From Octopus vulgaris (Eukaryota): 64,000 nt of DNA. The notes below the pieces were generated by a model. The model was given only the letters and a program-made list of their open reading frames with translations, ran no database searches and was not told the DNA's origin. The stretch lies in NCBI GenBank assembly GCA_951406725.2, contig OX597820.1, forward strand, positions 11,470,001 through 11,534,000. Direction: 5' to 3'. Below are positions 2,983 to 63,489 of the stretch, piece after piece. Both the position numbers and the translations under genes were made by a program. The number at the start of each line of letters is the position of its first letter. Positions within the stretch are counted from its first letter, which is position 1.

Positions 2983-3418
2983 ATAGAATACCGATGTAGG
3001 TTTCTTATCAAAGGATTTATTCCAGTGATAGCTAAAGTTTGCATTGTCGATCATTAGAAACATTTAATATATTTTTTTGTTAAGCAATATGTGTTGCATT
3101 GTGTAGCAATATTTCATGAATACATGTGAGTGTGTATGCATCTGTACATACATACATACATTTATGTATTTGTATATACATATACATATATATAAATATC
3201 AAATATAAATTAAAAACAGAACACAAAGGATATCGCCGTACACGTGTTTCAAGCTTTATAAACAATCCGTCATTACGTAATAACGGATATATACTCTCTC
3301 ACCTCTTCCGCTTATCTGGCATATACAGGTGCTTACACTTATCAAGTATTCACTCTAAATTTACAGTACCTACTTGATATATATATATACATATATATTT
3401 AGAGAGAGAGAGAGAGAA

Positions 3419-3501: not shown

Positions 3502-3586
3502 TTCCTGGCACTCACCGGATTCGAGCAGTCTCGAGGAGAAGGAGTGCGAAACTGCAAGGACTTTCCGGACACCGACTGAAGAGGAA
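3502..3586 (+). ncRNA. Candidate non-circularly permuted hammerhead ribozyme, family X1 copy A
   Basis: GCACTC(3508-13)/GAGTGC(3542-47)-GAAA; GCAGT-C(3525-30)/ACTGC(3551-55); TCG/CGA-CTGAAGA(3576-82); CCGGA/TCCGG; TTCC/GGAA. Confidence 0.6.
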
Positions 3587-3709
3587 ATCAGCTGTGAATG
3601 ATCCGCGTATCTTGTTTTTGTCCTGTTTTGCCGTCTGTTATGTTATCGTCTGTTTTGCTGCATGCTCTGTTTTGTTGATTTCCGCTTGTTGTGTTCTTTC
3701 TGTCCGACC

Positions 3710-3939: not shown

Positions 3940-4280
3940 GCTGCAAAGGCGGACAAGAGAGACCACAATTAGGACAGGCAAAAAAAAGACGGGTCATTCG
4001 TGGCTTTCTTTCCTCAGTCAAGTTCCAGAAGTCACGACCATTTCGGCAGTTACACTTGAGATGGGTCGATCTGGTGCCCCCCCCCCCTCCTTTTGAAGAA
4101 AAAGTCTAAGCTAAGAGCATTAGACCCTTTTGTAAGAAAGCTAGCGAATGTGTACGGTAACAAAGACAAAAAACAAACGAACAAAAAAACGGAGAACATG
4201 ATACACAATTACGAATACAAACAATAAGAAATAACAACAGGCGTCTTTCGATTGAAAACGATTCAAATTGAGCAGGCATG
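3940..4280 (-). mobile_element. Penelope-like repeat family X1 unit
   Basis: homologous over about 280 bp to 36857-37222 and to 21960-22172; abuts microsatellite. Confidence 0.6.
4004..4078 (-). ncRNA. Candidate non-circularly permuted hammerhead ribozyme, family X1 copy C
   Basis: minus strand: GGCA-c-CCAGA-tc-GACCCAT-C-TCAAGT-gtaac-TGCC-GAA-ATGGTC-gtgact-TCTGG-a-ACTTGA-CTGAGGA-aagaaag; intact core. Confidence 0.7.
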
Positions 4281-4647
4281 TATGAAATAAAAGCCTAAAG
4301 GCAAGAAGATAGGAGATGGACATAAGAGGTGTTGGCGGTCGGCAGTCAGACAAAGAAAGAAAGATCGTGGCTGGCCGGACACCGGTCATGTGGAAGGAGG
4401 AGAGATGGGTCGGGGACAGGGGGATTCAAGGATTGGACAAAATCAGAGACAAAGAGAAAGGTACAGGGGAGATAAAAGAGTGGGAAATAGTGGGAGTGAA
4501 AGAAAGCGAGGGCCAAGAAATGAGAGAGAGGGAGAGCGAGAAAAAGGAAGATAAAATGAGAGGGGGAATAAAAGATAGAGTAAGAGTCGTACAAAAAATT
4601 AGATACATACCTACTATAAGGTGAGCACAAGGGTGTACGTACGCCGC

Positions 4648-4679
<32 letters not shown>

Positions 4680-15300: not shown

Positions 15301-15675
15301 TTTATACATTATTTACATTTGACGGATATTTGTCCTCATCTTGTTTTTTGTTAACACAACGTTTCGGCTGATATACCCTCCAGCCTTCATCAGGTGTCTT
15401 GGGGAAATTTCGAACCTGGGTTCTCATTCCTAAGGATTATTATTACTATTTACATTATTTATATTTGACGGATATTTGTCCTTATCTTGTTTTTTGTTAA
15501 CACAACGTTTCGGCTGATATACCCTCCAGCCTTCATCAGGTGTCATGGGGAAATTTCGAACCTGGGTTCCCAAAGACACCTGATGAAGGCTGGAGGGTAT
15601 ACCAGCCGAAACGTTCTGTTAACAACAAACAAGATGAGGACAAATATCCATCAAATATAAATAATGTAAATAATG
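15301..15675. mobile_element. Penelope-like P1 locus: two tandem minus copies and one inverted plus copy, each with a minimal hammerhead
   Basis: HHR GACAC-CTGATGA-A-GGCTG..CAGCC-GAAA-CG-TT-GTGTT at 15353-15398(-), 15499-15544(-) and 15575-15620(+, CTGTT variant); 146-bp period. Confidence 0.8.
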
Positions 15676-21838: not shown

Positions 21839-21930
<92 letters not shown>

Positions 21931-22058
21931 CCAAAAGTTACGTACGCCGCTATATGTATACTGAAAAATGGAACAAGGACGTAACAGGCGACAACAAAAC
22001 ATCTGGACAGTTGGATGATCTAAAAAAAGACAGGAAAAAATAAGGACGGCATTCAGAG

Positions 22059-22147
22059 CTTTCTATCGTCAGTCGAGTTCCAGATCGTCGTTTCAATTTC
22101 GGTCGGTTACACTCGAGACTGCTCCAATCTGGCCGGCCCCAAGAAAA
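22059..22147 (-). ncRNA. Candidate non-circularly permuted hammerhead ribozyme, family X1 copy D
   Basis: minus: TTTTCTT-gg-GGCCGG-CCAGAT-tgga-GCAGT-C-TCGAGT-gtaa-CCGACC-GAA-ATTG-aaacgacg-ATCTGG-a-ACTCGA-CTGACGA-tAGAAAG. Confidence 0.7.
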
Positions 22148-22176
22148 TCTAAACTAAGAGCACTAGATTCTTTAGA

Positions 22177-22239
<63 letters not shown>

Positions 22240-36305: not shown

Positions 36306-36480
36306 ATACTCGAAATACGAAAGTAGAAAAGCAGCTAGCAACTGATGAAAGGTCGTTCTTTATGTTGTTTGTCTTGTTTACCATTTGTTTCTTTCGTTGT
36401 TCGAAAAAATAGTTCATATTCCATGTACTAGTACTTCGCATTTTTTGTTGTAGACGTTTTGTGACGTCCTGTGCCCACAT
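36306..36480 (+). mobile_element. Penelope-like family X2 fragment with 3' half of permuted hammerhead
   Basis: tactc-GAAA-tac...aagcag-c-tagcaa-CTGATGA; homologous to 63317-63470. Confidence 0.5.
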
Positions 36481-37020
36481 ATGTATGTATATATACGTAT
36501 AGATGTATACGTATGCATATATATATATATGTCGTTACGTTCCGAGTTCAAATTCCACCGAGGTCGACTTTGCCTTTTATCCTTTCGGGGTCGATAAATT
36601 AAGTACCAGTTATGCACTGGGCTCGATGTAATCGACTTAATCCGTTTGTCTGTCCTTGTTTGTCCCCTCTATGTTTAGCCCCTTGTGGGTAATAAAGAAA
36701 CATTATTTATAGTATTATATGATTGAACGCCTCGCATCCTCTTCCAAGCCAGATCTTTCTTTCTTGGTCTGGCCATCGTCCGTGCAACATCGATATTCCT
36801 CCCTGTACCTGTGAAATCTTGTATCCCTGCCGTGAAATCTTGTATCCACACACGCCAGCTTAACTTAATTCGTCCTTAGTCGAAAACATCTGTTGTTATG
36901 TCCTGTTATTATTATTTTTATTGTATTTGTGTAACATTCTCCGTTTCTTTTTTTTTTCCGTCCTTGTTTTCGTATACATTCGCTGCTTTCTTCCAAGGAA
37001 TCTAATGCACTTAGCTTACT

Positions 37021-37110
37021 TTTTCCTTGGGGCTGGGCAGATTGGAGCAATCTCGAGTATAATCAGCCGAAATTGCGAAGATAGTCTGGAACTCGACAGA
37101 GGAAAGAAAA
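37021..37110 (+). ncRNA. Candidate non-circularly permuted hammerhead, family X1 copy B (core U4A)
   Basis: GGCTGG-g-CAGATT-gga-GCAAT-C-TCGAGT-ataa-TCAGCC-GAA-ATTGC-gaagat-AGTCTG-ga-ACTCGA-CAGAGGA. Confidence 0.6.
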
Positions 37111-37218
37111 CTCCGAATGACCCGTCCTTGTTTTCTTTGTATCGCCTATCTGGATGTTTTCTTGTCCCTTTTTGTATCACCTAACTGTCTGGATGTTTTG
37201 CGTTCTTGTCCCATTTTG

Positions 37219-37312
<94 letters not shown>

Positions 37313-37331
37313 CATCGTACGTACACTTTGG

Positions 37332-37383
<52 letters not shown>

Positions 37384-45748: not shown

Positions 45749-48700
45749 GTAGAGACCTACAATAAATGTTTCCTTAATTTTATATCACTTTTACTTGTTT
45801 CAGTCATTTGACTGTGGTCATGCTGGAGCTCCGCCTTTTTAGTCGAGCAAATGGACCCCAGGACTTATTTTTTTGTAAGCCTAGTACTTATTCTATCGGT
45901 CTCTTTTAGCCGAACCGCTAAGTTACGGGGACGGAAACACACCAGCATCGGTTGTCAAGCGATGTTGTAGAGACCTACAATCAATGTTTCGTTTATTTTA
46001 TTTTACTCTCTACTCTTTTACTTTTTCCAGTCATTTGACTGCGGCCATGCTGGAGCGCCGCCTTTAGTCAATCAAATCGACCCCAGGACTTATTTTTTTG
46101 TAAGCCTAGTACTTATTCTATCGATCTCTTTTAGCCGAACCGCTAAGTTACGGGGACGGAAACACACCAGCATCGGTTGTCAAGCGATGTTGTAGAGACC
46201 TACAATCAATGTTTCGTTTATTTTATTTTACTCTCTACTCTTTTACTTTTTCCAGTCATTTGACTGCGGCCATGCTGGAGCGCCGCCTTTAGTCAATCAA
46301 ATCGACCCCAGGACTTATTTTTTTGTAAGCCTAGTACTTATTCTATCGATCTCTTTTAGCCGAACCGCTAAGTTACGGGGACGGAAACACACCAGCATCG
46401 GTTGTCAAGCGATGTTGTAGAGACCTACAATCAATGTTTCGTTTATTTTATTTTACTCTCTACTCTTTTACTTTTTCCAGTCATTTGACTGCGGCCATGC
46501 TGGAGCGCCGCCTTTAGTCAATCAAATCGACCCCAGGACTTATTTTTTGTAAGCCTAGTACTTATTCTATCGATCTCTTTTAGCCGAACCGCTAAGTTAC
46601 GGGGACGGAAACACACCAGCATCGGTTGTCAAGCGATGTTGTAGAGACCTACGATCAATGTTTCGTTTATTTTATTTTACTCTCTACTCTTTTACTTTTT
46701 CCAGTCATTTGACTGCGGCCATGCTGGAGCGCCGCCTTTAGTCAATCAAATCGACCCCAGGAGTTATTTTTTTGTAAGCCTAGTACTTATTCTATCGATC
46801 TCTTTTAGCCGAACCGCTAAGTTACGGGGACGGAAGCACACCAGCATCGGTTGTCAAGCGATGTTGTAGAGACCTACAATCAATGTTTCGTTAATTTTAT
46901 TTTACTCTCTACTCTTTTACTTTTTCCAGTCATTTGACTGCGGCCATGCTGGAGCGCCGCCTTTAGTCAATCAAATCGACCCCAGGACTTATTTTTTTGT
47001 AAGCCTAGTACTTATTCTATCGATCTCTTTTAGCCGAACCGCTAAGTTACGGGGACGGAAGCACACCAGCATCGGTTGTCAAGCGATGTTGTAGAGACCT
47101 ACAATCAATGTTTCGTTAATTTTATTTTACTCTCTACTCTTTTACTTTTTCCAGTCATTTGACTGCGGCCATGCTGGAGCGCCGCCTTTAGTCAATCAAA
47201 TCGACCCCAGGAGTTATTTTTTTGTAAGCCTAGTACTTATTCTATCGGTCTCTTTTAGCCGAACCGCTAAGTTACGGGGACGGAAACACACCAGCATCGG
47301 TTGTCAAGCGATGTTGTAGAGACCTACAATCAATGTTTCGTTTATTTTATTTTACTCTCTACTCTTTTACTTTTTCCAGTCATTTGACTGCGGCCATGCT
47401 GGAGCGCCGCCTTTATTCAATCAAATCGACCCCAGGAGTTATTTTTTTGTAAGCCTAGTACTTATTCTATCGATCTCTTTTAGCCGAACCGCTAAGTTAC
47501 GGGGACGGAAGCACACCAGCATCGGTTGTCAAGCGATGTTGTAGAGACCTACAATCAATGTTTCGTTTATTTTATTTTACTCTCTACTCTTTTACTTTTT
47601 CCAGTCATTTGACTGCGGCCATGCTGGAGCGCCGCCTTTAGTCAATCAAATCGACCCCAGGAGTTATTTTTTTGTAAGCCTAGTACTTATTCTATCGATC
47701 TCTTTTAGCCGAACCGCTAATTACGGGGACGGAAGCACACCAGCATCGGTTGTCAAGCGATGTTGTAGAGACCTACAATCAATGTTTCGTTTATTTTATT
47801 TTACTCTCTACTCTTTTACTTTTTCCAGTCATTTGACTGCGGCCATGCTGGAGCGCCGCCTTTAGTCAATCAAATCGACCCCAGGAGTTATTTTTTTGTA
47901 AGCCTAGTACTTATTCTATCGATCTCTTTTAGCCGAACCGCTAAGTTACGGGGACGGAAGCACACCAGCATCGGTTGTCAAGCGATGTTGTAGAGACCTA
48001 CAATCAATGTTTCGTTTATTTTATTTTACTCTCTACTCTTTTACTTTTTCCAGTCATTTGACTGCGGCCATGCTGGAGCGCCGCCTTTAGTCAATCAAAT
48101 CGACCCCAGGAGTTATTTTTTTGTAAGCCTAGTACTTATTCTATCGATCTCTTTTAGCCGAACCGCTAAGTTACGGGGACGGAAGCACACCAGCATCGGT
48201 TGTCAAGCGATGTTGTAGAGACCTACAATCAATGTTTCGTTTATTTTATTTTACTCTCTACTCTTTTACTTTTTCCAGTCATTTGACTGCGGCCATGCTG
48301 GAGCGCCGCCTTTAGTCAATCAAATCGACCCCAGGAGTTATTTTTTTGTAAGCCTAGTACTTATTCTATCGATCTCTTTTAGCCGAACCGCTAAGTTACG
48401 GGGACGGAAGCACACCAGCATCGGTTGTCAAGCGATGTTGTAGAGACCTACAATCAATGTTTCGTTTATTTTATTTTACTCTCTACTCTTTTACTTTTTC
48501 CAGTCATTTGACTGCGGCCATGCTGGAGCGCCGCCTTTAGTCAATCAAATCGACCCCAGGACTTATTTTTTTGTAAGCCTAGTACTTATTCTATCGATCT
48601 CTTTTAGCCGAACCGCTAAGTTACGGGGACGGAAACACACCAGCATCGGTTGTCAAGCGATGTTGTAGAGACCTACAATCAATGTTTCGTTAATTTTATT

Positions 48701-49567
48701 TTACTCTCTACTCTTTTACTTTTTCCAGTCATTTGACTGCGGCCATGCTGGAGCGCCGCCTTTAGTCAATCAAATCGACCCCAGGACTTATTTTTTTGTA
48801 AGCCTAGTACTTATTCTATCGATCTCCTTTAGCCGACCAACCGCTAAGTTACGGGGACGGAAACACACCAGCATCGGTTGTCAAGCGATGTTGTAGAGAC
48901 CTACAATCAATGTTTCGTTTATTTTATTTTACTCTCTACTCTTTTACTTTTTCCAGTCATTTGACTGCGGCCATGCTGGAGCGCCGCCTTTAGTCAATCA
49001 AATCGACCCCAGGACTTATTTTTTTGTAAGCCTAGTACTTATTCTATCGATCTCTTTTAGCCGAACCGCTAAGTTACGGGGACGGAAACACACCAGCATC
49101 GGTTGTCAAGCGATGTTGTAGAGACCTACAATCAATGTTTCGTTTATTTTATTTTACTCTCTACTCTTTTACTTTTTCCAGTCATTTGACTGCGGCCATG
49201 CTGGAGCGCCGCCTTTAGTCAATCAAATCGACCCCAGGACTTATTTTTTTGTAAGCCTAGTACTTATTCTATCGATCTCTTTTAGCCGAACCGCTAAGTT
49301 ACGGGGACGGAAACACACCAGCATCGGTTGTCAAGCGATGTTGTAGAGACCTACAATCAATGTTTCGTTAATTTTATTTTACTCTCTACTCTTTTACTTT
49401 TTCCAGTCATTTGAGTGTGGCCATGCTGAAGCACCGCCTTTAGTCGTGCACATCGACCCCTGGACTTATTTTTTTGTAAGCTTAGTACTTATTATATCGG
49501 TATCTTTGGCCGAACCGCTAAGTTACAGGGACGTAAACACACCAGCATCGTTTGTCAAGCGATGTTG
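45749..49567 (-). repeat. Satellite array, 17 x ~225 bp; unit = short flank plus 3' half of SINE B
   Basis: unit starts (gtagagaccta) at 45749, 45967, 46192, 46417, 46641, 46866, 47091, 47316, 47541, 47765, 47990, 48215, 48440, 48665, 48893, 49118, 49343; last unit continues into the SINE head to ~49790. Confidence 0.97.
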
Positions 49568-63281: not shown

Positions 63282-63357
63282 GAGAAACTGTCTTCCAAGA
63301 TTCATATTGTCGTTGATTGCTCAAATGGGGAGTAGATAGACAGCCGACAACTGATGA
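63282..63357 (+). ncRNA. Candidate non-circularly permuted hammerhead, family X2 (G12 missing)
   Basis: GAGAAA-CTGTCT-tccaaga-TTCAT-A-TTGTCG-ttga-TTGCTC-AA-ATGGG-gagtagat-AGACAG-c-CGACAA-CTGATGA. Confidence 0.5.
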
Positions 63358-63489
63358 ACGGTCATTCTTTGTATTATTTCTCGTTTTTTCTCTCTCGTTA
63401 TTTGCGTATTTAACGCATTTGTTTTCGTATTCCATGTTGTTTACTGTTGGTGATGTCCTGTACCGATATATGCGCTAAGCAGTGTTTAC

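Follow-up and report, generated by a model that had tools for sequence, protein, structure and literature searches.

The stretch of Octopus vulgaris DNA at 22059..22147 of the window, by which we mean the whole 64,000-nt stretch analysed, is a decayed, 5'-truncated copy of a Penelope-like repeat without an open reading frame (ORF), designated X1. Very likely, the repeat carries a hammerhead of block order S-G-C with two helices, IV and V, at the A9/G10.1 position, and the intact motif likely self-cleaves, while the 22059..22147 copy would cleave poorly or not at all.

Read 5' to 3', the strands of the fold are arranged as IV5'-V-II5'-d5'-III3'/NUH-I-linker-II3'/GAAA/III5'-d3'-I/CUGAnGA-IV3'. 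All 12 hammerhead core positions are present in the 22059..22147 copy (12/12), and its elements, all on the minus strand, follow this order. Hairpin V (22139..22174), supported by covariation and present in unrelated motifs, ends directly before G10.1, where the 5' strand of stem II (22133..22138) starts, detached from CUGAnGA. The next strands are the 5' strand of helix d (22125..22132), which connects stems I and II at their distal ends, and the 3' strand of stem III with the GUC triplet (22117..22122), located by the descriptor and the reading of the core; C17 is at 22117 and the predicted cut at 22117/22116. The stem I strand 3' of the cut (22111..22116) is connected by a 4-nt linker to the 3' strand of stem II (22101..22106), after which come the GAAA core with the 5' strand of stem III (22093..22100), the 3' strand of helix d (22080..22087), the stem I strand 5' of CUGAnGA (22073..22078) and the CUGACGA core (C3-A9; 22066..22072). 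The 3' strand of helix IV, proximal and distal, closes the series (22050..22065). Both strands of stem I and of helix d and the 5' strand of stem II are backed by covariation, the stem II 3' strand and the GAAA-stem III segment by the pair tally, the helix IV strand by both, and CUGACGA by its sequence.

Many details that a preliminary description had read from the letters alone are seen in this arrangement. The GUC triplet is on the minus strand, stem I has 6 bp (6/6 pairs, 22116-22111 with 22078-22073), CTGACGA lies at 22072-22066 and C-GAAA at 22101-22097, and helix d is extendable to 8 bp (22132-22125 with 22087-22080, one G-U included). The single mismatch claimed for stem II is a C-A at the third pair from the core (22136/22103), which leaves 5/6 pairs. 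The proposed 6-bp helix e, matched here by its end coordinates, can be drawn between 22147-22142 and 22064-22059 with one G-U, and the host unit lies between microsatellite tracts as described, flanked by (TA)n/(CA)n.

Other parts of that description did not stand. The 22059-22147 segment is not the whole fold, which is larger and needs the upstream hairpin V and helix IV. Nor is the copy well preserved: 8 of its 35 pairs are broken, tying it for the worst of 30 subfamily-A copies. Stem I (6/6), helix d (5/5) and hairpin V are intact and stem II keeps 5/6 pairs; stem III is weakened to 4/5, with its last pair lost and a U-G adjoining A15.1-U16.1. The element copy that holds 22059..22147 is 5'-truncated at ~22177, where (TA)n adjoins it; helix IV has therefore lost its 5' strand, and its 3' strand is orphaned. 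In predicted folding, stem III pairs at 0.24, and its 3' strand is taken at 0.67 by a competing pairing, with the orphaned helix IV strand. When folded with nested pairs only, ten comparison copies split evenly, five with stem III at 0.80-0.99 and five at 0-0.39, so that folding is a weak guide to this stem, which is not favoured in every intact copy (0.0-0.99). Cleavage of the 22059..22147 copy is probably poor or absent, and activity of this copy seems unlikely. With stem III damaged and the helix IV 5' strand gone, the proposed test candidate is among the worst available; if it failed to cleave in an assay, even after repair of stem II, this would not refute a ribozyme in the family. The copy itself adds little beyond one further family member.

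The reading as a permuted hammerhead is upheld by comparison of subfamilies: stems I, II, III and d covary, N7 is free while the core is held, and the cut site fits. Our alignment comprises 39 full-length natural copies, 10 each of subfamilies A, C and D and nine of B, picked from 110 loci for completeness. In this alignment 88.4% of the cells are paired vs 80.4 after shuffling, and two-sided change occurs in 25 of the 43 pairs, including 5/6 pairs of stem I, 5/6 of stem II and 4/5 of stem III. Cells with two-sided change number 167 vs 56 in shuffled alignments, with 0/500 shuffles as high; the relatedness of the copies inflates this test, so the cross-family evidence given below weighs more. 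Slid registers pair just 24-47% of the cells. Covariation is undercounted, since stems II and IV of the subfamily-B rows are shifted by one alignment column. Among the 30 subfamily-A copies, N7 is C in 12, A in 9, G in 6, T in 2 and a gap in 1. The core is intact in 15/30 A, 16/25 C and 21/25 D copies, and the core together with all helices in 2/30, 3/25 and 7/25, respectively, by slightly different criteria.

The block order is non-circular, and the 5' strand of stem II has moved upstream of CUGAnGA. Stems I and II cross stem III, which is not the circular, pseudoknot-free three-way junction of types I, II and III. The motif has the S-G-C order, the short I-II linker and the helix joining stems I and II of type SGC. 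Its block C is broken. In type SGC the stem II 5' strand lies no more than 2 nt from CUGAnGA; here it begins at 22138, 72 nt before A9 at 22066, a pairing backed by covariation, and helices IV and V enter between A9 and G10.1. Two other arrangements were discarded. A type III reading with the second GAAA after the core brings neither stem II nor stem III into register. A helix between the stem III 3' strand and the strand after the core is 74% paired, with 431/500 shuffles as high, and is merely a misfolding competitor.

X1 is a high-copy, ORF-less Penelope-like repeat of ~800 nt in a genome of 2.8 Gb. A query of the genome gave 2292 candidates, of which 40 were scored (81-89% identity); candidate counts overlap among subfamilies and are not copy numbers. 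Copies end at a fixed 3' position, and their 5' ends vary; the farthest lie ~570-630 nt before the motif, where the unit begins after the tail of a preceding truncated copy. The fixed 3' end, variable 5' truncation, partial tandems, short tail and microsatellite target are those of a non-autonomous Penelope-like element in (TA)n, and an inverted adjacent copy is found at locus L014. No ORF and no reverse transcriptase (RT) match was found in 110 X1 loci or in the window; X1 thus lacks the ORF with N-terminal GIY-YIG and C-terminal RT that marks an autonomous Naiad. It also differs from non-LTR retrozymes, whose long tandem arrays carry type I hammerheads and give circular RNA: X1 shows partial tandems only, and its ribozyme is not type I. 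The element around 22059..22147 is the 3' end of a subfamily-A unit (21927..22177, minus strand) in (TA)n, with 86% identity to the last 233 nt of the natural unit L013; by unit anatomy, the ~25-nt tail after its terminal (TA)n (21927..21951, minus strand) corresponds to the start of the next tandem unit.

Three other copies in the window seeded subfamilies B, C and D. Comparison of copies identifies the subfamily-B copy (3506..3630, plus strand), in which stems II and d have covaried, and the subfamily-C copy (36745..37335, plus strand), in which U4 is changed; the descriptor marks the subfamily-D near-full-length unit (3971..4661, minus strand), with its predicted cut after 4060. Further X1-related subfamilies, E and G, have stem sequences of their own (L137, minus strand, cut after 3181; L295-L315). 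The window also holds a decayed element with CUGAUGA near its start at 63290-63380 (plus strand), by eye another worn copy of the X1-type fold, and a similar decayed element at 36342-36530 (plus strand), which matches the unit of a different repeat, family F, described below. Circular-order Penelope-type hammerheads of a family distinct from X1 occur at 15305-15620 (both strands) and 8044 (minus strand), arranged as partial tandems and inverted copies, and a 225-nt SINE-derived unit is repeated head-to-tail in 16.8 copies with 98% identity at 45788-49567.

The same split fold occurs in sequences unrelated to X1. Family F is a second ORF-less repeat of this genome (3635 candidates), and all of its helices form in sequence unrelated to X1. 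The 5' parts of the units L013 (X1) and L193 (family F), otherwise unrelated in sequence, share a splice-donor-like GTAAGT close to the start of the unit, a long pyrimidine tract and the CACGTGACC motif, possibly an intron and an internal promoter. At the natural locus L121 of the same genome, a Naiad RT is joined to the split motif, and a motif taken from the 3' end of the published octopus Naiad has 187 exact matches in this genome.

Relatives of the Naiad RT were a second source of unrelated motifs, collected from metagenomes as the best 80 of 459 loci; an N-terminal GIY-YIG domain was confirmed for one of the relatives, P0004. The strict descriptor detects the split motif at 13/80 loci, each time 3' of the ORF and in sense orientation. 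It gives no such match on either strand of 200 kb of ORF and upstream sequence, nor in reversed sequence; its other matches are one CSG motif, likewise downstream and in sense orientation, and a weak SGC on the antisense strand. Helices V, IV (0-1 nt from V) and d form in 13/13 of the split motifs, though they are absent from the descriptor, and shuffled flanks lead one to expect adjoining IV and V in 0.43 vs the 13/13 observed. Two further loci, L263 (core at 2351) and L273 (core at 3028), have a closed form of order CSG, in which A9 and G10.1 are separated by two 4-bp hairpins that abut, so that the open form is its circular permutation, cut in loop IV. In a quick tree of the RTs, two deep branches carry the open form, and a third, distant branch carries the closed form.

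A complete motif is lacking at 64/80 loci, one of which, L262 (core at 2059), has the closed form cut by the contig end. At 59/80 loci there is no CUGAnGA downstream within their DNA, some having >1 kb and some contigs simply ending there. In 27 of the 66 loci without a motif, a relaxed search for the core found nothing, and the closed form was later found in 2 of them; no Naiad-type RT was found in viral contigs. The core of L215 (at 3480) was computed to be a plain type-CSG hammerhead behind a Naiad-type RT, and two nematode Naiads in the portion of the PMC8557442 supplement read by eye (CTGATGA sites 1-55 of 62) likewise have plain CSG. Such hammerheads behind Naiad-type RTs may give Eckert's orphan CSG type a host.

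By eye, the Naiad 3' ends of octopus, ctenophore, coral, box jellyfish and ostracod in that portion of the supplement show the split fold. The sections of PMC8557442 used here describe Naiads as having no canonical hammerhead, some of them, including the octopus Naiad, being flagged HHR_half_core. The split fold at the tail of elements reported without a hammerhead is likely their missing ribozyme, though the 64/80 loci lacking a complete motif speak against its generality.

That the motif is chance complementarity within a repeat is hardly credible. An unremarkable minimum free energy (MFE) of the 22059..22147 region (z-score +0.96) and the absence of a matching family in an Rfam search of the element agree with such an origin, yet the free energy is expected to be unremarkable because two of the stems are pseudoknots. 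The Rfam search of the whole window was dominated by miRNA matches to microsatellites (best 150 of 299), and Rfam searches of 15 motif loci and 20 motif-less loci gave nothing relevant. Chance is contradicted by the descriptor counts: with one mismatch allowed per helix, the descriptor for this strand order finds two sites in the window, this copy and the one at 4060, while 40 dinucleotide-shuffled windows gave no strict and two relaxed matches, or 0.05 expected per window. It is contradicted as well by the covariation among X1 subfamilies and by the three helices that lie outside the descriptor and are nevertheless found in 13/13 unrelated motifs.

The cross-family motifs also bear on helix e. 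Were the 89-nt unit the ribozyme by itself, helix e, formed by the 3' strand of V and the strand after A9, would close the A9/G10.1 gap and the 22059..22147 copy would be active. Its complete core, its stem I (6/6) and helix d (5/5) are compatible with this, as is the X1 alignment, in which helix e is 87.9% paired with 13 two-sided changes vs 4.9 shuffled (0/500 shuffles as high); helix e fits X1 because the 3' strand of V resembles the 5' strand of IV. Moreover, forcing helix e in this copy costs 0.7 kcal/mol relative to keeping V (-19.7 vs -20.4), so that the two are nearly isoenergetic, e could partly replace the lost IV, and a partial rescue is possible. Helix e is mutually exclusive with V and IV, however. 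These two form in 13/13 of the unrelated motifs and, as closed hairpins, in L263 and L273, and in the 13 motifs the analogue of e has a length of just 1-5 bp (median 3). In addition, e leaves spacers of 1+3 nt vs 0-1 nt with IV/V, and stem III of this copy is weak (predicted 0.24), its 3' strand being captured at 0.67. We thus regard an active 89-nt unit as improbable, and prefer the larger fold with IV and V.

Indirect evidence for cleavage of the larger fold comes from the 5' junctions of element copies. We tallied 24 distinct loci, among the matches listed (first 100 of 4413), in which (TA)3 ends within -22..+8 of the predicted cut. Among these listed matches, seven of the 24 elements start exactly at the cut (six without the doubtful L296), 13 start downstream and four upstream, at -11 to -16. 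Counted by interval, again among the matches listed, 11-12 of the 24 junctions fall in 0..+4 vs none in -5..-1, a pile-up with p = 8e-6 for the seven at the cut and p = 2e-4 for twelve in 0..+4. The tally is small, its offsets were read by eye and its loci are of subfamilies C and G, not A. In family F (21 loci) one copy starts exactly at the cut, none upstream and most at TA microhomology at +7/+8; the search pattern was biased against upstream starts, and this test is weak. The pile-up suggests cleavage at the predicted site in vivo, and it is likely, judging from these sequences, that the intact motif of the X1 family self-cleaves the element RNA.

The fold could also be conserved and yet no longer catalytic, serving as a hammerhead-derived binding or priming signal for the Naiad protein. 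The motif is indeed absent from many Naiad-type loci, and the insertion seen here at A9/G10.1 is unprecedented. Against such a signal stand the retention of all catalytic positions and the NUH triplet while N7, H17 and every helix change, and the sharp fall of 5' junctions, among the matches listed, at the predicted scissile bond; we rate it as quite improbable and retain the catalytic reading.

From ribozyme type and insertion anatomy only, we infer that X1 is a non-autonomous passenger of the Naiad-type RT/GIY-YIG machinery. The two share the ribozyme type, while their 3' end sequences are not similar and their ages differ: the median identity of Naiad 3' ends is 88% vs 92-94% for X1-C, X1-D and F, by which the Naiad 3' ends look older. 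The Naiad ORFs in this genome are decayed, and no second, intact Naiad family appeared among the 150 scored candidates of each RT search; scoring covered 150 of ~3100-3400 RT candidates, so a younger Naiad could have escaped notice. No RT remnant was seen beside the X1 loci (110 loci and the window).

A less likely but serious possibility is that the ribozyme is as described and that X1 is moved by intact C-terminal-endonuclease (Neptune-type) Penelope elements instead of Naiads. Intact 753-782-aa ORFs of this kind are present in the genome, X1-C, X1-D and F look younger than the Naiad 3' ends, and (TA)n is favoured by both groups according to the sections of PMC8557442 used here. On the other side, the motif was found only behind RTs of the N-terminal-endonuclease type, a scan of four C-terminal-endonuclease loci did not detect it in their 3' regions, and no ends common to X1 and these elements were seen. 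With Naiads decayed and older and C-terminal-endonuclease ORFs intact, the driver of X1 is uncertain. The four loci that carry the intact RT plus C-terminal GIY-YIG ORFs (L169-L172; 753-782 aa, many near-identical copies) have 3' regions in which scanning found no hammerhead of any order and which contain CUGAAGA with a possible stem I.

The fold suggests how a hammerhead core could accommodate such an insertion. IV and V abut, separated by 0-1 nt, and would form a single stacked helix; A9 and G10.1 would lie on opposite sides of its nick, in a four-way crossover that mimics their direct linkage. In place of the loop I/II contact, helix d and the linker of 1-5 nt would hold stems I and II together, as they do in SGC/CSG ribozymes that have been tested. 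Cleavage would trim read-through, upstream or partial-tandem transcripts and thereby set the 5' end of the template, which a Naiad-type RT/GIY-YIG protein would copy into (TA)n sites. We consider it probable that this undescribed architecture, with a non-circularly permuted core, a four-way junction at A9/G10.1 and open and closed forms, serves as the working ribozyme in many retroelements of the Naiad clade, in hosts ranging from ctenophores to cephalopods, with thousands of non-autonomous copies in this genome, and that it cuts in vivo and sets the template 5' end; the ~30 bp clamping the products could allow unit-length RNA to be re-ligated into circles.

If true, this would overturn the statement that Naiads lack hammerheads, which has been used to argue that the hammerheads of Penelope-like elements (PLEs) may be dispensable passengers. 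It would also overturn the assumed 1-2-nt limit on what can lie between CUGAnGA and the adjoining stems, on which the six-permutation scheme is based. Non-circularly permuted ribozymes would shift from anonymous metagenome contigs to abundant animal retroelements, in which their function is testable, and the hammerhead core would have a natural docking site for two helices, of relevance to ribozyme structure and switch design.

The split fold is new as a variant of the non-circularly permuted (type SGC/CSG) hammerhead; no description of its strand order was found in the open-access literature. In the sections of PMC10085705 used here, insertions at A9/G10.1 are taken as at most 1-2 nt, and no tested hammerhead with more was found there. 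One extra base at this position is tolerated in viroid and PLE hammerheads, as stated in parts of PMC3705267 and PMC4209133, and the portion of PMC3088659 consulted lists core insertions of just 1-2 nt.

The closest known systems are the SGC and CSG hammerheads, both of which cleave in vitro at 0.004-0.19 per minute (PMC10085705, in the sections used). Like X1, they have the same circular class of block order, the full core, a short linker between stems I and II, and a helix that connects these stems at their distal ends; unlike in X1, where IV and V split it at A9/G10.1, their block C is unbroken. Their examples in these sections come from metatranscriptomes and metagenomes, none of a known organism, whereas X1 is an animal retroelement with thousands of copies. 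The Naiads of PMC8557442, as far as its sections used here go, resemble X1 in (TA)n target, 5' truncation, partial tandems, an inverted adjacent copy (L014 in X1) and a 30-40-nt tail; unlike X1 they carry an ORF, and X1 has no similarity to the Naiad 3' end. The minimal type I hammerheads of Penelope pLTRs and retrozymes (PMC4209133 and bioRxiv 10.64898/2026.07.22.740005, each in part) also lie in a PLE repeat end or non-autonomous tandem unit, and processing of tandem RNA has been proposed for them, as here for X1; the relevant part of the bioRxiv study used type I models only. According to the same sections, these type I motifs have the circular order and a weak stem III and work as dimers, whereas the split motif has a stem III of 4-6 bp and would fold as a monomer.
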